In this document: positions 1 through 58,836 of the stretch, piece after piece
How positions within the stretch are numbered: position 1 is the first letter of the stretch
How the letters are laid out: each line of letters opens with the position of its first letter
From: Anaerolineae bacterium
GTDB lineage: Bacteria; Chloroflexota; Anaerolineae; JAAYZQ01
Length of the DNA: 64,000 nt
Assembly: GCA_035341665.1 (NCBI GenBank)
Contig: DAOQVR010000002.1
Location: forward strand, 117,626-181,625
Direction: 5' to 3'
The notes under the pieces: model-generated
Database searches by the model: none
The model's input: only the letters and a program-made list of their open reading frames with translations
Told to the model about the DNA's origin: nothing
Translations under genes and position numbers: made by a program

Positions 1-1404
1 TCTCTGCGGCGGGCCGCGGCCGGCCTGGCGGCTCTCTTCCGGGAGCTCGTGCGCGATCCCCCCGCCGTCGCCGGCCTCGGGATCATCGGGCTATTGCTCG
101 CCATGTCCCTCTACGCGCTCGCCGCGGTCCCGCGCGGCCCCGCCACGATCGCAGCCGCGCCCGTGGCGGTGGGCGAGATACCGCCCCCGCAGAACGCGCT
201 GCCGGTGTGGGTCAACTGGTTCCGCGCGGTCGACCTGCCTTCCACCATCGCGCTCGATTCGCGCAGCGGCCAGGCGCTCAAACAAGTGCTGCCAGACCAA
301 GGCGCGGCCCGCCACCTGCGCCTGACCTTCACCTTCGACTACCCGTACCACGGTGTCCCCCAGGAGATGTACCTGCGCCTCTTCGCGCGCGGGACGTCCA
401 AGACCTTTGTGACGCCGCGGTGGATCATGCCCGGGGGCAAGGAGGTCCCGCTCGCCCCGCGCGGCGTGGCCGGTGACGAGGCATACGATCTCTCGGAGAA
501 CATCCCGCGCAGCTACCTTGCTTCGCACGCCCTCGCCGGCCAGTTCCGCAGCCGCGAAGGCCGTGGCGGCGGCCAGGGTGGGCTTGCCGAGTACACGGCA
601 CTCTTCACCGACCCCCAGGACGAGGAGGGGCGGAGCGTGCGCGGCACCTACACCGTGGAGCTGGACGCACTCGGCTTCGAGGCGGACTCGGACCTGGACG
701 CTCAGCTCATCCTGGTCGGGCGCGTCTGGGGATGGGCCGGCACGGACGATGCACGCGGCGATCTCTGGTCGGCCCTGCTGTGGGGAGCCCCCTCCGCCCT
801 GATCATAGGCCTGGGCGGGGGCCTTGTGACCACCCTCACGTCCCTCGTGCTTGCGGCCGTGGGCGCCTGGCGCGGCGGCTGGCTCGACGGCCTGATCCAG
901 CGGCTGACGGAGGCCACCATGGTCCTGCCGATCCTGGCCGTCGCCGTGATCCTCCGGCTGCTCTTTGGCTTCAGCCTCTGGCTGGTGATGGCGTCGGTCG
1001 TCCTCGTGAGCGCGCTGGGCACGCCGGTAAAAGCCTACCGGGCGGCCTTCCTGCAGGTGCGCGGGGCCGCCTACATCGAGGCCGCGCAGGCCTACGGCGC
1101 CGGCAACGCGCGAGTCATCCTGCGCTACATGATCCCGCGCATCGCGCCCATGATCGCGCCGCAGCTGGCGATCCTGGTGCCCGGCTTTGTCTTCCTGGAG
1201 GCGACGCTCGCCATCTTTGGTGTGAGCGGCACCCTGCCCACCTGGGGCAACCTGATCTACACCTCCCTGCGCGCCGAGGTGTGGCAGGGGAACTACCTGG
1301 CGCTGATCCAGCCGCTGGGCCTGTGCGTCCTGACAGGCATTGGCTTTGCCCTGTTGGGCTCGGCGCTCGACCGGATCCTGAACCCGCGGCTGAAGACAGC
1401 CTAG
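1..1404 (+). CDS. ABC transporter permease (Opp/Dpp-type, OppC/DppC-like); 5' end probably outside window
   Basis: Frame 1 is open from nt 1. The C-terminal ~200 aa carry the binding-protein-dependent permease core (AYIEAAQAYGAGNARVILRYMIPRIAPMIAPQ, several TM helices). A long extracytoplasmic segment follows the first TM. Confidence 0.8.
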   Translation, partial: SLRRAAAGLAALFRELVRDPPAVAGLGIIGLLLAMSLYALAAVPRGPATIAAAPVAVGEIPPPQNALPVWVNWFRAVDLPSTIALDSRSGQALKQVLPDQGAARHLRLTFTFDYPYHGVPQEMYLRLFARGTSKTFVTPRWIMPGGKEVPLAPRGVAGDEAYDLSENIPRSYLASHALAGQFRSREGRGGGQGGLAEYTALFTDPQDEEGRSVRGTYTVELDALGFEADSDLDAQLILVGRVWGWAGTDDARGDLWSALLWGAPSALIIGLGGGLVTTLTSLVLAAVGAWRGGWLDGLIQRLTEATMVLPILAVAVILRLLFGFSLWLVMASVVLVSALGTPVKAYRAAFLQVRGAAYIEAAQAYGAGNARVILRYMIPRIAPMIAPQLAILVPGFVFLEATLAIFGVSGTLPTWGNLIYTSLRAEVWQGNYLALIQPLGLCVLTGIGFALLGSALDRILNPRLKTA

Positions 1405-3451: not shown

Positions 3452-3480
3452 AGCGTACTCCGGTTGCCCGAACCTGTCAA
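3452..3480 (-). promoter_or_regulatory. Candidate sigma70 promoter for the beta-helix gene
   Basis: Minus strand reads TTGACA, 17 nt, TACGCT. Confidence 0.35.
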
Positions 3481-3640
3481 GTCATTGTCGCAGGCCCTGG
3501 AGCCCCTCGGGCAGCCGGTGCCGCCACGGCCCAATGCTGCCGTTGACCCAGGCCACGTCTATCTGGCCGCGCCCCGAGGCCGGCCGTCGCACCGCAGTCT
3601 CCCTGCGCGAGATCCCTCCCCCGCCGCCCCCACCAGGCGA

Positions 3641-3724
3641 TGGTCGATAGTCGTTTCTGGAAAAACGGGCATTTTGGGATAGTACCCTCAAATACATGTC
3701 AGAGTGTCAGAGTTCGGCAACCCT
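3641..3724 (+). promoter_or_regulatory. Conserved intergenic element, copy 1 of 3 (candidate operator/activator site)
   Basis: About 80-85% identical by hand alignment to 29976-30062 (+) and 57289-57366 (-). Core GATAGTCGTTTCTGGAAAnnCGGGCATTTyGGGATAGTACCC...TGTCAsAGTGTCAsAGTTCG. Confidence 0.6.
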
Positions 3725-3750
3725 GCGCACGGCAGGGCCGCCCCCCTCTC

Positions 3751-3779
3751 TTGCCCGCCACCCCGTTCCGCGGTACAAT
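3751..3779 (+). promoter_or_regulatory. sigma70-type promoter upstream of the beta-propeller repeat gene
   Basis: TTGCCC, 17 nt, TACAAT. Leaves a leader of about 215 nt. Confidence 0.45.
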
Positions 3780-4000
3780 CCCATCTGCAGCCGTGCCGCG
3801 GCAGCGACCGCCCGCTCGATCCCTAGCCGCCTGGCGGTCCACATCCAGGCGAGCGCCACCTTCCATCAGGCGCAGGCGCCGCGACCCGGCGGGGCAGGGC
3901 GCACGGCAGGGCCGCGGTCCGTCCCACGCCCGCATCCTGGGCACGCCCGGTGGCAGGACAGGGTCGGCCGGAGCCCTCACTCCACGAGGAGGGACATCGG

Positions 4001-6300: not shown

Positions 6301-7584
6301 ATGCTGACATCCAGGGAACGTGTCCAAGCGGCCTTGAACCACCAGGAGCCCGATCGAGTGCCCCTCGACCTGGGAGGCACCCTGGTCACAGGCATGAACG
6401 TGAGTGTCGTCTACGCCCTTCGCCAGGCGATGCACCTCGACCCCCCCGGCACGCCGGTCAAGGTAATCGAGCCCTACCAGATGCTCGGCGAGATCGGCCC
6501 CGACCTCGTGGATGCCCTCGGCGTGGACGTCGTGGCGGTCAATCCCGAAAAGGGCTTCTTTGGCCTCAAGATCGACGATTGGAAGCCCTGGCAGCTCAGC
6601 GACGGCACCCCCGTGCTGGTCCCCGGCCAGTTCAACACCGAGCCCGCCGCCGACGGCAACCTCTGCCAGTACCCCGACGGCGACCGCTCAGCCCGGCCCA
6701 GCGGCCGCATGCCCGCAGGCGGCTTCTACTTCGACGCCATCATCCGCCAGGAGCCGATCGACGAAGCCAAGCTGGACCCCGAAGACAACATGGAAGAGTT
6801 CACGCTCCTCACCGACGACGAGGTGCTCTACTTCGAGCGCGAGGTGAAGCGGCTCTACGAGCAGACCGACAAGGCGATCGTCGCCAACTTTGGCGGCACG
6901 GCCTTCGGCGACATCAGCATGGTGCCGGCGACACAGCTCAAGAACCCCAGGGGCATACGCGACATCGAGGAGTGGTACGTCAGCACGGTCAAGCGCAAGG
7001 ACTATGTCCTCAAGGTGTTCGAGCGCCAGTGCGAGGTCGGCCTGGCCAACCTGGAAAGGCTGCACCGGGCCGTGGGCGACCGCGTGGCCGTCGTCTTTGT
7101 GACGGGGACCGACTTTGGCACCCAGAACGCGCCCTTCCTCTCCGTCAAGACCTACCGTCAGATGTACTTCCCATTCCACAAGGCGCTCTGCGACTGGATC
7201 CACCGGCACACCGCATGGAAGACCTTCATGCACAGCTGCGGCTCCAACCTCCCCCTGATCCCAAGCTTCATCGAAGCCGGGATCGACATCCTCAACCCGG
7301 TGCAGTGGACCGCCGTGAACATGGACGCCCAGATGCTGAAGGAGCGCTTCGGAGACCAGCTGGTCTTCTGGGGAGGCGGAGTCAACTGCCAGCGGACCCT
7401 GCCCTTTGGGACCCCCGACGAGGTGCGCCGCGAAGTCCAGGAAAAAGTGCGCATCTTCGGACGGGGCGGCGGCTTTGTCTTCAACACCATTCACAACATC
7501 CAGGCCCAGACGCCGATCGAGAACGTGCGCGCCATGTACGACGCCTTCCGGGCCTGCCGCACCTATCCGCTCGGGGAGCCCTAG
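6301..7584 (+). CDS. Uroporphyrinogen decarboxylase (URO-D) family protein, MtaA/CmuA-like
   Basis: GGAGG RBS then ATG. MLTSRERVQAALNHQEPDRVPLDLGG N-terminus and TIM-barrel C-terminal motifs are typical of URO-D-like enzymes. Specific function unknown. Confidence 0.65.
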   Translation: MLTSRERVQAALNHQEPDRVPLDLGGTLVTGMNVSVVYALRQAMHLDPPGTPVKVIEPYQMLGEIGPDLVDALGVDVVAVNPEKGFFGLKIDDWKPWQLSDGTPVLVPGQFNTEPAADGNLCQYPDGDRSARPSGRMPAGGFYFDAIIRQEPIDEAKLDPEDNMEEFTLLTDDEVLYFEREVKRLYEQTDKAIVANFGGTAFGDISMVPATQLKNPRGIRDIEEWYVSTVKRKDYVLKVFERQCEVGLANLERLHRAVGDRVAVVFVTGTDFGTQNAPFLSVKTYRQMYFPFHKALCDWIHRHTAWKTFMHSCGSNLPLIPSFIEAGIDILNPVQWTAVNMDAQMLKERFGDQLVFWGGGVNCQRTLPFGTPDEVRREVQEKVRIFGRGGGFVFNTIHNIQAQTPIENVRAMYDAFRACRTYPLGEP

Positions 7585-7879: not shown

Positions 7880-9916
7880 CTACGGTACCGTCAGTTCCTC
7901 GCTCGTCTCCTGGTTCATGGCAGGATCGTACTCGTAGCCGGCCGCCTGGACATCCAGGATCGTGATCGTAAAGAGCCCGGTCAACTTGGACGCGCGCGCG
8001 AAGGCGGCGGCCCCATTCAGCCCCGTCACGCGCGTCTGCGTGATGGTCCGTCCGTCGGGCAACGTCCACTGCGCGGTCACGTTCGCGCCCACGACGCGGT
8101 TGCCCGCCTCATCCCACACCGGCACCTTGGCCTGGACCATGTACGTGTTGGGCACCGTCACCTTGTACTTCATGGCAATGTTCCCAATGAACGCCTTGGT
8201 CAGGCCGCAGTCGGGGAAGACAAACGAGCCGATGCGCGTCTGCCAGTTGGCATACCCGTTGGTCACGATGTACTCCTGGGTGTACCAGAAGGTGCAGCTG
8301 TCCGTGGGGTCTACCTGCATCGCGCTATAGTCCCCCCAGCGGCCGTACGAGCTGGACTGGTAGCCCGCGCCCGTGATCAGCGTCGTCTCAGACTGGGGCA
8401 GCGTCCCGAGCGGGTCTGCCGCGAGCCGGCCCACGTACCGGATCGTGGGATATAGGCTGCCGCTCGACACGCTAAAGCCAAGCGACATGTTGCCGGCCTG
8501 GTCCTGGGCAATACTGCCCATCCAGCGGCTCGACCCGTCGTTCGGACCATACGTGCCCTGCTGGTAGATCGACCACCCACCGCCCGAGTTGCGCAGCTCG
8601 TACCAGTGGATGCCTGCCAGGTTGTTGCCGATGCTCACCGTGTGGTTCGTGACCATCGACTGGTAGCTGCCAAAGTTGCGGTACTGAAGCCGGTGCATCA
8701 GCCGGTCCGCGATCTCGTCCAGGTTCTGGGTCGTCCCCGGCTGGTCGATGCAAAAGTTCTGGCCGCAGATGGTGGGATTGACGTCTGCCGTGCCGATCAC
8801 ATAGTTCGGCTCCAGCCCGGCGCCAAAGCTCGAGTTCCCGGGCGTCACCCAATCGGCGTGAAAGTTCCAGATGCGCAGTGCATCGGTCGGCCCGATCCAG
8901 GTCGAATCATCCCACTCCATGAAGGGGCAGGGCGCGCCGGTCGGCGGCTGGGACGTACCCTCCCAGTCGGCCGGCTGCATGCCGCCATAGTTGGCATTGT
9001 GCGTGTAGAGGTCATAGTAGATCGTCTGCGCCGACTGGCCCAGCAGCATCTTGTCCCGCTCAAATGCGGCCGCACCCTGGCCGCGCCACGACCCCGAAGA
9101 GCTGAACTGGTTGACGGCAACGTAGTAGCCGTCGGGCCACAGCGTGACCTTCGGATAGTCCGGCATGTAGTTGTTGGGCCACGCGTAGGCGTAGCGGTGC
9201 CAGGCACCTGTCGGGTCGGCCGTCTGCGACACGGCGATGCAGAGGTAGTCCGGGGTCGTGGTGAGGCCGAACTGCAGCATCACCCAGCGGTCGGCCAGGT
9301 GATCGTACAGCACGACGGGGTCGCCACTGTTGGACGTCTCACAGCTTCCGCCGAATCCGGTCCAGAGGGTGTTGCCGTTGGCCGGCCCGTAGAGCGACGT
9401 GCCATTCTTGTCCCACACCTGGAAGGAGAGGTTGACCCACTGCACATAGTGGTTGGGACCGACGTCGCCGTTGGTATCGGGCGGGTGCACCCCATTCCGG
9501 TTGTTGACCCCTTCCCAGTTCATAATCGGGGAGGGCATGGCGCTCTCTCCCTGCCAATCCTGAAGGGTCGCATCGGCGCCGGTGGCGCCCCGGTCGTGGC
9601 CCGGCAGCGGCCCCTCGTGGAAGCGGACTAGCTCTTCATCTGCCGGCGGCGTCACGATCGGCGCGATGTCACGCAGCGGCGGCGAGACGTCGAACTTCTC
9701 CGGCTGGATCACCAGCGGCCCTGCACCGGCCTGCGCCGGCTCCGGCGCGGCCGGCTCGTTCCCTGCCGAGCCCACCGGTGCGCTCATCGCGTACGACACC
9801 ATGCCGGCCTCGGCCGAGTTGGCCTCATTGGGCGCCACGACCCACACCACGGCCGTCAAGGCCAGCAGGATCGCCAAGGCGCCGCCCGCCACTTTGAACC
9901 ATCTTGTCTTGTGCAT
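7880..9916 (-). CDS. Secreted protein of unknown function with C-terminal Ig/carboxypeptidase-regulatory-like domain
   Basis: N-terminal anchor/signal MHKTRWFKVAGGALAILLALTAVVWVVAP. The large central region has no motif I can assign firmly (WGDYSAM-type motif is reminiscent of sialidase-like propellers). Confidence 0.6.
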   Translation of the reverse strand: MHKTRWFKVAGGALAILLALTAVVWVVAPNEANSAEAGMVSYAMSAPVGSAGNEPAAPEPAQAGAGPLVIQPEKFDVSPPLRDIAPIVTPPADEELVRFHEGPLPGHDRGATGADATLQDWQGESAMPSPIMNWEGVNNRNGVHPPDTNGDVGPNHYVQWVNLSFQVWDKNGTSLYGPANGNTLWTGFGGSCETSNSGDPVVLYDHLADRWVMLQFGLTTTPDYLCIAVSQTADPTGAWHRYAYAWPNNYMPDYPKVTLWPDGYYVAVNQFSSSGSWRGQGAAAFERDKMLLGQSAQTIYYDLYTHNANYGGMQPADWEGTSQPPTGAPCPFMEWDDSTWIGPTDALRIWNFHADWVTPGNSSFGAGLEPNYVIGTADVNPTICGQNFCIDQPGTTQNLDEIADRLMHRLQYRNFGSYQSMVTNHTVSIGNNLAGIHWYELRNSGGGWSIYQQGTYGPNDGSSRWMGSIAQDQAGNMSLGFSVSSGSLYPTIRYVGRLAADPLGTLPQSETTLITGAGYQSSSYGRWGDYSAMQVDPTDSCTFWYTQEYIVTNGYANWQTRIGSFVFPDCGLTKAFIGNIAMKYKVTVPNTYMVQAKVPVWDEAGNRVVGANVTAQWTLPDGRTITQTRVTGLNGAAAFARASKLTGLFTITILDVQAAGYEYDPAMNQETSEELTVP

Positions 9917-10331
9917 ACACCCCCCTTGGAATCAGATTTCGGCTCCCCGAGTCACGAATTCGCATCGTACCACCACCCGCAGCAGCCGGCAAATGCCGGG
10001 GCGGCTGCTTCCATCGGCCGGCGCCACCCTCCGGCCCCCGTAGCCTAGCCCTTCGCGGGCGCGTGGGCAGGCCCGCCTGTCAGCTCTCCCGTGGGCGTGC
10101 CGGCGGCAGCTCTGCGCAAGGGAGCCATGGCCCGATTTGCCGTCCAGGGGCTTTCGTAGTACACTTCTGCGCCAGGAAGGGATGGATCAGGACGATGTGT
10201 TGGGACGTGCCGCAGTTAGCCCGCTCTGTCGCGCCGCTGCGCCCCCACGCCCACCATCCCCATAGGCACGTGAGCCACGCGCCGGGGGCCGTTGCCTGAC
10301 CCATCACGAGGTCGGCCCGACGACCAAGCCA

Positions 10332-10404: not shown

Positions 10405-11748
10405 ATGCAGGACACCAAGGCCAAGAGGGTAGAGCCCCGCCTGCCGCGGGGCATGCGGGACATCCTTCCGCAGAAGATGATCCAGCGCGAATACGTGATC
10501 GCCACCATCCGGCGCGCATTCGAAGAGTTCGGGTTCGAGCCGCTCCAGACGCCCGCCCTCGAGCTGCGCGAGACGCTCATGGGCAAGTACGGCCCCGACG
10601 CCGAAAAGCTGATCTACGAGGCGGGTCATGTCGGAGGCAAGGAGCAGCTGGCGCTGCGCTATGACCTCTCGGTCCCGCTGGCCCGCGTGGTCGCCCAATA
10701 CCCGGACCTCGTCAAGCCGCTCAAGCGCTACCAGATCGCTCCTGTCTGGCGTGCCGAGCGCCCACAAAAAGGCCGCTACCGCGAGTTCTACCAGTGCGAC
10801 GCCGACTGCGTCGGCCCGGCTTCGATGCTGGCCGATGCCGAGATCCTGAGCCTCACCTACGAGGTCCTGTCCCGCCTCGGCTTCCGCCAGTTCACCATCC
10901 TCCTGAACGACCGCAAGCTGCTCAACGGCATCGGCCGCTACGCCGGCGTCGACGACGAGCAGCGGGCCGGGCTCTACCGATCGATCGACAAGCTGGACAA
11001 GGTCGGCCTGCCGGGCGTCGAGGAGGAGCTGCGCAAGAACGCGATCCCCGACGGTGCGATCCAGCGCATGTTGGAGCTGCTCCAGGTGCAGGGCGACAAC
11101 CGGGCCATCCTCGCGCGCCTGCGCGTCGTGCTCGCCGGCTCTCCCGATGCCCTGGAAGGGCTGTCCGAGCTCGAAGAGATCGTCGGCTACCTGGAGGCCC
11201 TCGGCATCCCCGAGCGCTTTGCCCGCGTCTCGCCGGCCATGGTGCGCGGGCTGGAGTACTACACCGGCCCCGTCTTTGAGACGGTCGTGGAAGAGCCCAA
11301 GATCGGCAGCATCACCGGGGGCGGGCGCTACGACAAGATGATCGGCATGTTCACCGGTCGCAGCCTGCCCGCCACCGGCACGACCATCGGGATCGAGCGC
11401 ATCATCGACGTGATGGAAGAGCTGGGCATGTTCCCACCCGGCGTGGGCAAGACGGTGACCCAGGTCTTGGTCACGCGCTTCAACCCGGACCTTGTGGTCG
11501 ACTCGCTCAAGGCAGCCGCCGCGCTGCGCGCAGCAGGGCTCAACGCCGAGCTCTACTTCGAGGACGAGTCCCTGGCCCGGCAGGTGCGCTACGCCGACCG
11601 CAGGGGCATTCCCTACGTGGCCATCCTCGGGCCCGACGAGGTCGCTGCCGGCCGCATCACCCTGCGCGACCTTGCCGGAGGGCGCCAGGTGACCGTCGCC
11701 CGCGACGCCGCCCCCGCGCAGCTAGAAACCTGGCGCCACGAAGCCTAG
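10405..11748 (+). CDS. hisS: Histidine--tRNA ligase
   Basis: RLPRGMRDILP, YQIAPVWRAERPQKGRYREFYQCDAD and GGGRYD class II HisRS motifs. GGAGGAGAGG RBS before the ATG at 10405. Confidence 0.93.
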   Translation: MQDTKAKRVEPRLPRGMRDILPQKMIQREYVIATIRRAFEEFGFEPLQTPALELRETLMGKYGPDAEKLIYEAGHVGGKEQLALRYDLSVPLARVVAQYPDLVKPLKRYQIAPVWRAERPQKGRYREFYQCDADCVGPASMLADAEILSLTYEVLSRLGFRQFTILLNDRKLLNGIGRYAGVDDEQRAGLYRSIDKLDKVGLPGVEEELRKNAIPDGAIQRMLELLQVQGDNRAILARLRVVLAGSPDALEGLSELEEIVGYLEALGIPERFARVSPAMVRGLEYYTGPVFETVVEEPKIGSITGGGRYDKMIGMFTGRSLPATGTTIGIERIIDVMEELGMFPPGVGKTVTQVLVTRFNPDLVVDSLKAAAALRAAGLNAELYFEDESLARQVRYADRRGIPYVAILGPDEVAAGRITLRDLAGGRQVTVARDAAPAQLETWRHEA

Positions 11749-11766
11749 CCCAGGCCTAGAAAAAGA

Positions 11767-11815
11767 CGGGGCTGTCCGATTTGAGCCGTCGGCCACTTGA
11801 ACCCCAGTTCAGTGC
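11767..11815 (-). repeat. Decayed copy of the 3' two-thirds of tRNA-Pro (att-like direct repeat)
   Basis: 41/49 identical to 13831-13879 (inside tRNA-Pro), same orientation. The substitutions break the T and anticodon stems, so it is not a functional tRNA. Confidence 0.6.
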
Positions 11816-11832
11816 CCAAACTGGCCGCCTTG

Positions 11833-11869
11833 GTTCACTTGACGATGGCTTCTTCGTCGTCAAGTGAAC
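11833..11869. repeat. Perfect 13-bp inverted repeat GTTCACTTGACGA / TCGTCAAGTGAAC
   Basis: Read directly. A further TCAAGTGAAC copy lies at 11884-11893. Shares the CACTTGA core with the tRNA-Pro anticodon arm and with hairpin 13788-13824. Confidence 0.6.
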
Positions 11870-11967
11870 TCCGGTACCTGCAATCAAGTGAACTGAGGCT
11901 CGTCCCGACTAGCCTCTCTGAACGCTGCTTAGTAAGATCCCATACACCCGCCAACTGGACTGAATGG

Positions 11968-12779
11968 TCACCGCCCAGCATAGGTTTCCAGGCAAGGTGC
12001 ATGCTCCTCGCAGCCATCCCAGCCACACGCAGGCGGGCGAAAGAACACGCTGTCCGGACGATCCTCCCCAGCGTCAGGTGCAGCCAGCACGTGATGCCGC
12101 AGTTGCCCGGTGACCCTGCTCATCACGTCGTCGGCCAGACGCTGAAAGGCGGCCTTTGCGACAGCCGGTTCCCACTCGACCAGCATCTTGGCCGGCCAGC
12201 GATCGGCCTCGTCCGGCAAGTCGGCGGCGCGACTGAGTGCCATGGCAAACCAGTACAGGTCGAAGCCGGGGTATATCTGAGCGGCCTGTGCGAGCAGGGA
12301 GTCCAGGCGCTCGGAATGCGGAGGGAAGAAGAGATCGATCGCGGCTCTCGGCTCAGCGCGCCCGCAGTACGCCAGCAGCCTGTCGACGCTGACGTCTTGC
12401 CAGTCGCTTCTTCATGCCCCATACGGAGACAGTGCGAGGGCCTCAAAGCACTAGGGCGAATCCAGGGCGAGATCGACGCGCACGGCGCCAGTCTCGGAAG
12501 ACACCGTGAGCTCCACAAAGCTCGAAAAGCGGCACACCACCTGGACGTGCAGCCAGCCGGCCCGGCAGGCGCGCTCAAGCCCGTAGGAGAAGGGAAGGAT
12601 CAGGCCTGCCTCGGCGGTGAAGAGGTCCAGGTCGAACGAGAGGGGTGGCCCAGGTAGAACTAGGCCGGGGCCGTGCCGCCCGCGAGACAGGACCGCCCCT
12701 GGTCCGGCAGTGCACCAAACAGACTCAGGAGCGCTTGCTGCATGGGAGTGAGGGGTCCCTTACCCTGGAGCATTTCCAT
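11968..12779 (-). pseudogene. Disrupted AbiEii/AbiGii-type nucleotidyltransferase (type IV TA toxin-like)
   Basis: Minus-strand fragments in different frames: MEMLQGKGPLTPMQQALLSLFGALPDQGRSCLAGGTAPA(stop), then ..PPLSFDLDLFTAEAGLILPFSYG..(stop), then ..DRLLAYCGRAEPRAAIDLFF..MALSRAADLPDEADRWPAKML. The GGTA and DLDLF motifs are characteristic. At least two frame breaks. Confidence 0.55.
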
Positions 12780-13046: not shown

Positions 13047-13322
13047 TCACGCCGTGGCCAACTCGACAGCCTCTGACGCTGCCACCGGCCGGCTTTCGAG
13101 GTACAGAGTGTCATAGCTCAGATCCACACCACCTGGCCACTCGACCGAACCGGCCATCACCCGAGCTGCACAGAAGGTCGCGGGGTTCTGCAGGCGGGCA
13201 AAAACCCCGCGGTGCAGGTAAGGCTTGACGTCGAATACACGACGCTCACCATTCTCAAACAAAAGCTCCAGTCGGTAGCCATCCAGAGGCTGGACCTGCT
13301 TGACATACGGATTCATGACCAC
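13047..13322 (-). CDS. DUF2442 domain protein
   Basis: MNPYVKQVQPLDGYRLELLFENGERRVFDVKPYL.. matches the DUF2442 pattern. Sits 3 nt downstream of its usual DUF4160 partner. Confidence 0.75.
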   Translation of the reverse strand: MVMNPYVKQVQPLDGYRLELLFENGERRVFDVKPYLHRGVFARLQNPATFCAARVMAGSVEWPGGVDLSYDTLYLESRPVAASEAVELATA

Positions 13323-29615: not shown

Positions 29616-29813
29616 TCACTCCCGGCTCTCGTCAGCCCGTTCCTCGTACCATTCGTCCTCGTCGGGCCATTCCATGGCCCAATCGAGCTCCAGGGGCTCC
29701 AGCGAAATCACCTCGAGCTGCGCGTCGCAGTAGGGACACAGCAGCTTCTGCATCAGCCTTGGGTGGCTCAGGCTGAGCCGGGCGTCACAGTCGGGACAGG
29801 TACCGGTTGCCAC
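29616..29813 (-). CDS. LysW-like zinc-ribbon amino-group carrier protein homologue (65 aa)
   Basis: GTG start 11 nt after GGAGGAG. TCPDCDARLSL..LLCPYCDAQLEVISLEPLELDW then an acidic tail DEDEWYEERADESRE, parallel to Thermus LysW (CPECGAEL..CEDCGAELEVV..DPL.LE..EDWGE). Confidence 0.55.
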   Translation of the reverse strand: MATGTCPDCDARLSLSHPRLMQKLLCPYCDAQLEVISLEPLELDWAMEWPDEDEWYEERADESRE

Positions 29814-29975
29814 GGGATGGTCTTCTCCTCCTCTTTCTTCACGCAGTAGAATAGCCCGAAGGCGATCACAAGTCAAGGCGAAGGCAACCCGGTCAGGAAG
29901 TTGCTCTCTCCTAGGGCACTCGTGGCGCCTTGTGCTACCGATGCGTAGGTGATAGAATGGCCTATGGCAGCCACG

Positions 29976-30062
29976 GATGGTCGATAATTGTTTCTGGGAT
30001 TTCGGCCATTTCGGGATAGTACCCTTAAAAACGTGGCACAGTGTCACAGTTCGCGAACCCTA
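29976..30062 (+). promoter_or_regulatory. Conserved intergenic element, copy 2 of 3
   Basis: GATGGTCGATAATTGTTTCTGGGATTTCGGCCATTTCGGGATAGTACCCTTAAAAACGTGGCACAGTGTCACAGTTCGCGAACCC, 118 nt upstream of the PA14 gene. Confidence 0.6.
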
Positions 30063-30179
30063 TGCAGGGGCACCTCCGGGAACCATTTCGCGGCATCCTG
30101 CGTCTATCTGGTGAGAGAGCCGGCCCTGCGAGGGCTGGCAGCGACGTACTTTCCGAGAAGAAGTAGATGGAGGTGTAAC

Positions 30180-56102: not shown

Positions 56103-57107
56103 CTACTCCACCTTGCCGGTGATCCGCTTGGCCGTCCCCTCGATGAAATCCCATAGTGGCCAAGGGCTGCTGCCCAGAAGGAACGAGACCGCTGCCAAGA
56201 TCCGCGGGTCGGAGAGGTCGATGGTGAGCTGGTTGCCGCCTGCCAGCGTGATGCTGAGCGTCGCCAGCGAGAGCAGGAGCACCGCGACGAGGACCAGCAG
56301 CGGCGTGGTCAGAATATGGGCCACGTGCATCACGATCCCCTCTCGGTAGAAGCGGGACGAGCGCAGCCACCAGGCGATGGTGATGATCTTGTGGACCAGG
56401 ACCCCGGCCAGGCCCCACAAGATCACCTCCAGGAAGCGCCAAGCGCCCTGGTCCCAGATCCCGGCCGACTCGTGCGAGGCCGGCAGCACCAGCTGCTCGA
56501 GCGTCGCCAGGCCGGCCAGGACATCGGGCAGGCGGTCCTGGTCGAGTGCCGCGCGAAGCCCCTCCGCCAGCCCAACCACCACCTCGTCGGCCTCGCCCAG
56601 GTCACCACCCTTGACCAGTGCGTCCAGTGTCGACTCGATCTGCGCGATCGTGGCCCGCAGCTCTGCGCTGCCGTCCGGCTGGGCCTCAGCCGCCTGCGCC
56701 TGGGCCTGGTCGACGAGCGCCGGCAGGCCGGCCGCTAGGGGCGACGGCGGGCGCGGGAAGAAGGCATGCAGGGTTATGTAAAGTGCGATGAGGACCCCGA
56801 GCGCAATCAGCATCGCGAGCCAGGTGCGGCGGCCCAGCTTGGCGTCCTCTGTGTCCTGGGCGCGCTCGAGGTAGAGGCGGATGCCGGACTTGTCGTCCGT
56901 GGCAAGGTCGACCTCCTCTCGGCACGGGCGGCTCGACTCGTCGAGTGCGACCAGCACCCACTTGCCGGGATCGAGTGGGATCTCGAAATCGCCGTCGCCG
57001 TTGCTGCTGGTGTGGAGGATGGTGTCGCCTTTGACGGCCTTGACGGAGGCGTACTCGACGCGCTCCTTGCTTCCCTTCCGATAGAGGGTTCCGGACACCT
57101 TGGGCAT
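56103..57107 (-). CDS. Membrane protein: N-terminal carboxypeptidase-regulatory-like beta-sandwich, TM, ~120-aa helical loop, three more TMs
   Basis: ATG after an AAAGGAGA RBS. VSGTLYRKGSKERVEYASVKAVKGDTILHTSSNGDGDFEIPL is CarboxypepD_reg-like. TM segments WLAMLIALGVLIALYITL, FLEVILWGLAGVLV, ILTTPLLVLVAVLLLSLATL. Confidence 0.6.
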   Translation of the reverse strand: MPKVSGTLYRKGSKERVEYASVKAVKGDTILHTSSNGDGDFEIPLDPGKWVLVALDESSRPCREEVDLATDDKSGIRLYLERAQDTEDAKLGRRTWLAMLIALGVLIALYITLHAFFPRPPSPLAAGLPALVDQAQAQAAEAQPDGSAELRATIAQIESTLDALVKGGDLGEADEVVVGLAEGLRAALDQDRLPDVLAGLATLEQLVLPASHESAGIWDQGAWRFLEVILWGLAGVLVHKIITIAWWLRSSRFYREGIVMHVAHILTTPLLVLVAVLLLSLATLSITLAGGNQLTIDLSDPRILAAVSFLLGSSPWPLWDFIEGTAKRITGKVE

Positions 57108-57143
57108 GTTCGTCTCCTTTCTCACCCCGCGATATTAACGTCC

Positions 57144-57172
57144 ATTATACCGCAGTCCGCCGGGCAGGTCAA
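57144..57172 (-). promoter_or_regulatory. Near-consensus sigma70 promoter for the three-gene operon
   Basis: Minus strand TTGACC, 17 nt, TATAAT, about 35 nt upstream of the start codon. Confidence 0.55.
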
Positions 57173-57288
57173 TGGGGTATGTCTGGAGCCGGTCTCCGAC
57201 GAGGAGCGAAAGCCGACGTGCGGCCGGCGGCGATAGGCACTTGGTCCAGGGCTACGACGATGGGCGCCGTTGGCCTGGCTCTGCGTTG

Positions 57289-57366
57289 AGCTGGCGAACT
57301 CTGACACTGTGACACGATTTTTCGGGTACTATCCCGAAATGCCCGAATTTCCAGAAACGACTATCT
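57289..57366 (-). promoter_or_regulatory. Conserved intergenic element, copy 3 of 3
   Basis: Reverse complement GATAGTCGTTTCTGGAAATTCGGGCATTTCGGGATAGTACCCGAAAAATCGTGTCACAGTGTCAGAGTTCGCC, about 84% identical to copy 1. Confidence 0.6.
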
Positions 57367-57591
57367 CAGGGTGGGCGATGCACGGTGGGCGCGTGTGCAA
57401 ACCCACCCCACGACTGCTGTGCCGGGTGAGCCGGGCTGCCCGGGTAGGACCGGGAATGAAAGTTTCGGACAGCCCGGGCCGGGAGACCGAGCGTGCAGGG
57501 CACACGCAGCATGCCCCCACCAGGCACCCAGCTGGTGGTTTGCCCGGGCCATGTGGCTGTGATAGACTTGCGCCGGAAGGAGTGGGACGAT

Positions 57592-58836
57592 ATGCAACCT
57601 CGCCGCATCCACGCTGCCATCCTGCTTGCCATCACCCTTGGGGCGCTGCCCTGCCCGGTGCCCGGCTCGCATGCCGGGGCAGGGAAGGCGCCGGCCGCCC
57701 AGCAGAACGCCTCCGTTTTGGGCGCAACGCGCGTGACGGTCACGGGCCGTCGGCTGCTGGTGAACGGGCAGCCCTTCCAGGTGCGGGGCGTGGGCTATGC
57801 CCCCACCCCGATCGGCGACGATGTCCGGTACGACTGGCCCTATGGCGACTATTTCACGGCCGAGCATGCCGCAATCTACAGCCGCGACCTACCGCTCCTG
57901 AGGGACATGGGGGCGAACACGGTCCGCCTCTGGGGCTGGAAATACGACAGCCCGGAGCATGGTCCCTTCCTCGACGCGGCGCACAACGGCGGCTCGCGCC
58001 CGATCTATGTCATCGTTTCCTACTGGCTCGGCGCCGGGCGCGACATCCACTCCCCAGCGGGCAGGCAGGCGATCGTCGACGAGTTCACACAGATGGTGGC
58101 TATCCACAAGGACCATCCGGCCGTGCTGATGTGGGCTATCGGAAACGAGCTGAATGCAAGCTGGATGTATGGGGACAGCGACGACCTCTTCAGCCTGATC
58201 GACGAGATGGCCGCGGCCGCCCACGCCGAGGAGGGGGAGAGCTACCACCCGGTCACTACGCCGCTGTGCGATGGCCCCAGCCCAACGAGCCTGATCGACA
58301 CGATCGCCGCCCGCGATCCGCAGGTGCCCAACCTGGACGTGTGGAGCGTGCAGGTTTACCGCGGCCCCTCCTTCGGCAGCCTCTTCGTCGACTATGCAGC
58401 CGTGAGTGGAAAGCCGCTAGCCATCACCGAGTATGGTATTGACGCCTACGATATGGCGCATGGGACGGAGTATGAGCTGATCGGCACGCCCTACCAGGCG
58501 ACCTACGCAGAGGCGCTGTGGAAAGAGATCGCCGCCAACCCAGAGGTGTGTGCCGGCGGCGCGATCATGGCCTACAGTGACGAGTGGTGGAAGGGGGCGA
58601 ATGGCGCAGAACCGCCCGGAGGGGGTTGTCCCGAAGGGGACGCCGGGTTCCACAGCGTGTGCGGCTATACCAACCTCGCTCACCCCGATGGCTTTTCCAA
58701 CGAGGAGTGGTGGGGCATTGTGCGACCGGTGAAGAATGGCGACTCGCCGGACATCATGCAGAAGAGGGCGGCCTACCACCGGCTGAGGTCGCTCTGGACG
58801 AGCAGCGTGTATGTTCCGTGCGTGATGAGGCAGTGA
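57592..58836 (+). CDS. Secreted clan GH-A glycoside hydrolase (GH2-TIM/GH5-like)
   Basis: Signal [40 protein letters not shown] (acid/base) and AITEYG (nucleophile). C-terminal tail [10 protein letters not shown]. Confidence 0.7.

Follow-up and report, generated by a model that had tools for sequence, protein, structure and literature searches.

The question raised by this locus is what a conserved intergenic block of ~80 nt is doing three times in one stretch of 64 kb (64,000 nt, called the window here). The window belongs to an uncultured Chloroflexota in a metagenome of the anaerobic-digester type, and the identical sequence occurs in several further samples. The first-pass annotation had read the block as a protein-binding DNA module, either an activator site or an alternative-sigma promoter, pointing at genes for exported and membrane proteins. 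A profile search found all three blocks at the places where they had been reported:

Positions 3633-3728, plus strand: copy 1, with its core at 3646-3720.
Positions 3697-3704 and 3705-3712, plus strand: the two 8-mers TGTCAGAG of copy 1.
Positions 29970-30065, plus strand: copy 2, with its core at 29983-30057, of the TGGCACAG-TGTCACAG subfamily.
Positions 57284-57375, minus strand: copy 3, with its core at 57291-57365 and the 8-mers TGTCACAG-TGTCAGAG.

When the 75-nt cores were compared (copy 3 as the reverse complement), they shared 59/75, 64/75 and 63/75 positions without gaps (79-85%), in agreement with the 79-84% reported earlier. The GC content of the blocks is 44-47%, against 68% for the window. 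In copy 1 the parts follow each other in the order GATAGTCG, three TTTCNGG-like repeats, GGGATAGTACCC, an A-rich stretch, two TGTCAGAG and TTCGGC. The tandem 8-mer and the three TTTCNGG-like repeats of the earlier description were found in the copies, and the shared GGGATAGTACCC has exactly three exact matches in the window, all inside the three blocks. An inverted match to the block had also been described at 3462-3479; it exists (18 nt, 72% complementary), but every other copy lacks an equivalent, and since it is unique to copy 1 it is probably due to chance. An exact 17-nt direct repeat, GCGCACGGCAGGGCCGC, was observed at 3725-3741 and 3899-3915, the first unit touching copy 1 at its 3' end and the second placed just ahead of the beta-propeller gene, with a sigma70-like promoter bracketed by the pair. 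The cumulative G-C skew of the window falls steadily from position 1 to ~56.7 kb and rises after ~58.5 kb, and its minimum brackets copy 3. This V-shaped minimum (56500-58500) may mark oriC or an inversion breakpoint, or it may be a local effect. Copy 3 itself was not retained as an oriC candidate, as no DnaA-box cluster and no replication genes were found nearby and a single DnaA-box-like 9-mer was present (58100, one mismatch).

Twelve additional copies were identified in related uncultured Chloroflexota, giving 15 loci with those of the window. Eight of them (L005 and L007-L013) were found by a metagenome scan with GGGATAGTACCC...GTGTCANAG; one match of the same scan, L006, was rejected as a chance hit. 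More diverged copies are present at L023, L026/L027 and L028-L030, from a relative with ~90% protein identity, and at L031. Among 11 close copies the mean pairwise identity is 87% within the block versus 37-41% in the 35-nt flanks on each side, and this box-shaped conservation profile is far beyond chance. Strict patterns had no matches in the GTDB genome collection or in IMG/VR. Since the nearest DnaE in the GTDB genome collection is only 47% identical, the lineage is not represented there. A literature search for the motif strings returned nothing relevant. In a relative with 68% protein identity, a borderline profile match (E = 0.02) was observed at L024 15764-15819, minus strand, reading CAATCGTTTCCGGAACC...GATCGTATCC...ATGGCCGGGTGTCAAA, which may be a much more diverged member of the family. 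Downstream of the L013 copy, between convergent genes, two ~30-nt direct repeats ACGCCCACGAGGGGCTACACTWCCCGGGTGC were seen at 8275-8390 on the minus strand.

The earlier description had preferred DNA carrying short direct repeats over a structured RNA, and folding upheld this view. The consensus fold of 14 sequences by RNAalifold had an energy of -4.6 kcal/mol with a covariation term of +0.21 and 0 compensatory pairs, and the z-scores of single-sequence folding on both strands were -1.4 to +0.2. Rfam searches at the gathering thresholds and at E <= 10 returned tRNAs and noise only. Where the two 8-mers vary between C and G, both units have C or both have G, a parallel and not a complementary change. 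The sequence GGGATAGTACCC offers only a 3-bp stem, and alignment folding revealed no palindrome. A coding function was rejected as well, since some copies are interrupted by stops in all frames and copy 3 lacks a start codon. A structured RNA, small RNA or 5' leader transcribed from the block would be in keeping with a weak promoter-like TTGTGC-17-TAGAAT upstream of the copy 2 block, with the lack of a sigma70-like site between copy 2 and its gene, and with short GC hairpins after several copies, but the folding and Rfam results and the parallel 8-mers argue against it, as do scans of the three window copies in which no terminators were found. We regard this reading as highly improbable. The hairpin of copy 1, which is weak evidence, is as follows:

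Positions 3721-3737, plus strand: GC hairpin CCCTGC-GCACG-GCAGGG directly after copy 1.

Hairpins of other sequence but similar kind follow several other copies and the end of the L043 helicase gene described below, and the hairpin at 3721-3737 may be a chance feature of GC-rich DNA.

The regulatory reading concerns the genes and promoters that lie next to the copies, which are the following:

Positions 3751-3779, plus strand: sigma70-like promoter TTGCCC-17-TACAAT, between copy 1 and the beta-propeller gene.
Positions 30079-30106, plus strand: ECF-sigma-like promoter GGAAC-N17-CGTCT of the PA14/Golvesin_C gene, outside the repeat.
Positions 57172-57144, minus strand: sigma70-like promoter TTGACC-17-TATAAT, between copy 3 and a 340-aa gene.
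Downstream of copies at other loci: rpmH-rnpA (L012), rpsA (L009), a MiaB-like radical-SAM gene (L010), a PLP enzyme (L008) and a CNNM transporter (L005).

The near-consensus sigma70 sites reported between the block and the gene for copies 1 and 3 were found, and that of copy 3 is conserved in the L026 ortholog. The claimed link to exported and membrane proteins did not hold in the wider family, in which the genes listed above stand downstream. GATAGT and TACTAT are -10-like, but neither strand has a -35 at 16-18 nt, and no sigma70 site was found inside any window copy. A sigma54 site (TGGCAC-N5-TTGC) was rejected, as by eye the first half alone matches, in one subfamily only. The GGAAC-N17-CGTCT promoter, which is similar to the ECF consensus, is kept in PA14 orthologs with and without the repeat (L023, L114 and L115, and in a looser form L025). 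A LysW-type zinc-ribbon gene at 29616-29813 on the minus strand is divergent from the PA14 gene; it is syntenic at L023, L114 and L115 and absent from L025.

These observations bear on the proposal that the block is host cis-regulatory DNA, co-opted to modulate the promoter downstream of it, whether as an insulator or as a binding site upstream. A co-oriented gene stands downstream at 9/12 independent loci (one-sided binomial p = 0.07), with a sigma70-like or ECF-like promoter within ~200 nt downstream, and there may be a weak orientation preference toward downstream genes. The block is conserved and its flanks are not, and it is kept at two orthologous loci in the relative with ~90% protein identity. 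Set against this, the spacing from the block to the next -35 varies from ~0 (L023) to ~185 nt (L008), and the genes that follow have no function in common. At three independent loci (L007; L028; and L011 with L013, whose context is the same) the next gene is convergent and the block points at its 3' end. Moreover, PA14 orthologs without the block (L115, L116 and L025) keep their own ECF-like promoter, and the neighboring promoter and 5' UTR are better conserved than the orthologous blocks. An activator site or alternative-sigma promoter was thus not borne out by the spacing or by the element-free orthologs, and a cis-regulatory role of any kind is unlikely in our judgement. Copies upstream of host promoters would simply occupy tolerated intergenic space and would not regulate those genes. 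For annotation the caution is that strong conservation of an intergenic block ahead of genes does not by itself make the block regulatory.

The first-pass annotation had looked to a mobile-element match as the sign that its reading was wrong, and such a match was found, the element being the 3' end of a helicase gene plus iterons. At L026/L027, L028-L030 and L031, an open reading frame of the form ...RTLYRARRAL...GPRDPxKRW enters the element, where the TAG of GG(G)ATAG ends it. At L026/L027, the orthologs of the copy 3 locus, the frame ends ...DWLLAYLAAAGEPVRPRDVVQAARQAGFSPRTLYRARRALEGHVVDVGAGPRDPDKRWGDIVSRKTGISG* with the TAG of GGATAG as its stop, and the fragment P0213 of L028-L030 likewise ends in the element. 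A word-index search with the L026/L027 frame gave few homologs, all fragments of 71-126 aa, with P0213 among them. An exhaustive search with the longest fragment returned 209 relatives; the full-length ones are ~410-460 aa long, carry the AAA_25 domain (PF13481) and are matched at their C-terminus, and one is fused to PrimPol and PriCT_2 domains. The tail of the helicase had a weak score as a winged helix-turn-helix. The full-length helicase of L043 ends ...KRWSIIVSPEKCIQG on GATGGTCGATAATTGTTTC...GGGGTAGTACC...TGAGACAG, a junction also written ...PRDPNKRWSIIVSPEKCIQG on GATGGTCGATAATTGTTTC...GGGGTAGTACCTGCGTGTACAGTGAGACAGTAGCC, and judged from this sequence the L043 helicase end is the block in its native setting.

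All that the window copies retain of the helicase tail is 5-10 decayed codons, in the forms PTRRW, PRDPGWRW, PPDPGKR* and PHDPGSR*. The remnant at copy 1 is located as follows:

Positions 3615-3645, plus strand: decayed remnant of the helicase C-terminus, ...PTRRW, with the frame ending at the TAG of GGGATAG.

This PTRRW is homologous to the ...GPRDPDKRW of the L026, L028 and L043 helicase tails. The remnant upstream of copy 3 has a deletion of 9-12 nt, which is also found in L010. Tandem 8-mers invariably come after the helicase gene, at L026, L028, L031, L032, L033, L043 and ~20 other loci. The 8-mer differs by lineage (TGAGACAG, TGGCACAG, TGACACAG, TGTCACAG, TGGCAGAG or TGTCAGAG), and the two units of a copy vary in parallel; the window copies have two TGKCASAG units and L031 has three TGGCAGAG. 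Since the tandem 8-mers always follow the helicase gene and are lineage-variable, the element corresponds to the helicase 3' end together with the iteron part of an origin. On these sequence comparisons, it is well supported that the block derives from the boundary between a helicase 3' end and an origin, and that the copies belong to the class of dispersed non-autonomous repeats. A scrambled helicase pseudogene was observed at L031 (5-103, minus strand; 184-570, plus strand), in which an inverted fragment of the Walker-A region lies beside the 3' fragment that precedes the three TGGCAGAG.

The parent is an integrative plasmid-like element. Around 20 related helicase genes, in Anaerolineae-type genome bins, are followed by short tandem repeats and then by a DnaG-type primase gene. 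The iterons often form two inverted sets around a ...GATACCCCCC...TTAAA... centre, as seen in L036, L041 and L044-L048. The array of L046, TAACTGTGTCACTGTGTCA...GATACCCCCCCCCTTAAAGACCG-TGAGACAG-TGAAACAG-..., resembles copy 2, GATAGTACCCTTAAAAACG-TGGCACAG-TGTCACAG. L044 additionally carries a ParM-like actin, a tyrosine integrase and an MT-A70 methylase. At L037, a 6.2-kb unit consists of a tyrosine integrase, an unknown gene, the AAA_25 helicase, iterons and the DnaG-type primase, and is flanked by 70-nt direct repeats (6956-7025 and 13182-13251, 89% identical). This unit is situated between an FtsK/SpoIIIE gene and a large serine recombinase.

Several of these loci have further features. At L039 11322-11838, five tandem ~100-nt units with TGAGACAG-type iterons were observed after the helicase gene, and this is an expanded origin array. 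L043 has five tandem ~45-nt repeats upstream of the helicase gene (9700-10000) and an IS110-family transposase gene (11620-12735) inserted ~370 nt past the block-like helicase end. At L032, palindromes TAGAAC-N4-GTTCTA, which we take to be Cheo/LexA-box-like, stand at 107-122 and 319-334 upstream of the full-length AAA_25 helicase gene and its divergent neighbor, which suggests SOS control of the mobile element.

An AAA_25 homolog was found neither in the window nor in loci L005-L013, the loci examined from the window's own clade, and no inverted iteron arm was found within 700 nt of any solo copy. Since their iterons stand in one orientation only and the inverted arm is missing, the solo copies are unlikely to be complete or working origins.

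Comparison of orthologous loci showed how the copies come and go. At the PA14 locus both the window and L023 (91% protein identity) carry a copy, that of L023 being 5'-truncated and differently flanked, and the site is empty in L115 and L116 (80% protein identity) and in L025 (71%). An 85-nt insert at the same locus in L114 (79%) was not recognisable as a copy. No duplicated bases, and thus no target-site duplication, were found at the insert when the empty L115 was compared with the filled L023 and the window, and no terminal inverted repeats were found around the copies. An 11-nt repeat (10/11) around copy 3 was considered as a target duplication and found unconvincing. Short-read assemblies of the ~90% relative break at the repeat. 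The upstream flank of copy 2, GGCCTATGGCAGCC, and its downstream flank, CCCTATGCAGGG at 30058-30069, match the flanks of the L011 copy, and the common upstream flank is the last codons of the host gene at the L011 locus. Since both flanks are shared, copy 2 looks copied, flanks included, from a paralogous locus.

By eye, the blocks of L023 and L028, from one sample, are nearly identical, whereas the orthologous copy 2 and L023 are ~70% identical. L023, L026 and L028 share TGGCAGAG-TGGCAGAG and GGGATAGCACCC-type changes, and the window clade has TGTCAGAG. Copies within a genome are therefore more alike than orthologs between genomes, which points to concerted evolution. The 87% identity of the block against 37-41% for the remnant and flanks is unlike a purely neutral fossil, and hence some constraint must be at work, or else homogenisation. 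It could come from selection for binding, from conversion of one copy by another, or from recombination with resident elements that refreshes the block.

We consider it probable, though well short of certain, that the copies are solo non-autonomous repeats, derived from the helicase 3' end and the iteron origin segment and bound by the initiator helicase. The source would be the last codons of a Chloroflexota AAA_25 (RepA/DnaB-like) replicative helicase with a winged-helix C-terminus, together with the iteron origin segment that follows. The layout, the lineage-specific 8-mers and the SaPI precedent discussed below suggest that the solo copies are most likely non-autonomous DNA to which the element's own initiator helicase binds, the block serving as a putative DNA-level binding array. 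The 8-mers and the TTTCNGG repeats would act as iterons, and the AT-rich centre as the melting region. Spread and homogenisation would proceed by recombination or templated repair, among copies or with resident elements, rather than through inverted ends recognised by a classical transposase.

The copies could also be recombination scars or landing pads, with the block as the chromosomal entry site of the plasmid-like element. A homologous or site-specific crossover would take place between the origin region and a chromosomal block, a solo copy would be the junction on the right-hand side, made of helicase 3' end, block and host DNA, that survived when most of the element was deleted, and repeated traffic would refresh the block sequence. 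Such a history would account for a helicase remnant that is always 5' of the block and varies in length from 0 to >380 nt, and for the concerted evolution of copies within a genome. At L033, a block-like PRDP...GATGATTGTTTCTCAAAAAAAACCG...CCCGAAC directly precedes a full-length helicase gene that has its own iterons after it, as if this gene were inside a block. Paralogous helicase fragments also show more synonymous than non-synonymous change (pN/pS 0.37, 10 versus 10 changes). Nevertheless, paired blocks flanking an element were seen at no locus, the 70-nt (att) repeats that flank the L037 element beside its integrase have no relation to the block, and the arrival of blocks at new sites is left unexplained. 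The scar model is therefore unlikely in our view, if worth keeping in mind. That selection keeps the solo blocks as putative chromosomal sites for the initiator helicase, either as origin decoys that would soak up the initiator of invading or resident elements (an incompatibility-like defence or copy-number control) or for crtS-like sensing or triggering of replication by the element, is compatible with the conservation of 87% versus ~40%, with the parallel change of the 8-mers and with a copy at the GC-skew minimum; we think it improbable.

The preferred reading, solo repeats from a helicase/origin boundary, gives a sequence handle on an element family that combines a helicase with a winged-helix tail, iterons and a primase, and its winged helices and iterons, already paired by nature, lend themselves to studies of recognition specificity. 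Binding of the initiator by the copies, if it occurs, would make them an uncommon example of origin-like sites spread over a whole chromosome.

The closest parallel is found in SaPI replicons, where the C-terminal winged helix of the helicase binds short iterons directly 3' of rep, around an AT-rich centre (PMC9371898). The elements described here are like the SaPI/PICI Rep-ori (PMC9371898) in their C-terminal winged helix, the tandem repeats of 5-8 bp right after the open reading frame, the AT-rich centre, the lineage-specific repeat sequence and the adjacent primase gene. They differ in that the helicase is RecA/DnaB-like AAA_25 and not SF3, and in that the window copies are solo and scattered over the chromosome, without the helicase gene and the inverted iteron set. 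The copies resemble MITEs in being short (~90-120 nt), non-coding, intergenic and multi-copy with sharp conservation boundaries, in their presence and absence between close relatives, and in breaking assemblies. Unlike MITEs, they lack terminal inverted repeats and target-site duplication, and their parent would be no transposon end but a helicase/origin segment from inside an integrase-type element. Extra or chromosomal sites bound by a plasmid-type initiator are known from Vibrio cholerae crtS and from plasmid incompatibility iterons. The blocks would be similar to these as non-coding DNA outside an origin, putatively recognised by an iteron-type initiator; crtS, however, is a single site with a demonstrated timing role, and the copies here are many. 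REPs are imperfect palindromes of 20-40 nt tied to RAYT transposases. Like REP/BIME sequences, the copies are intergenic repeats that evolve in concert within a genome, but the block forms no palindrome and its link is to a helicase gene. For short dispersed repeats the usual source is a transposon end, whereas this family, from uncultured Chloroflexota of anaerobic digesters, appears to stem from the junction of a replication helicase gene with its iteron origin.
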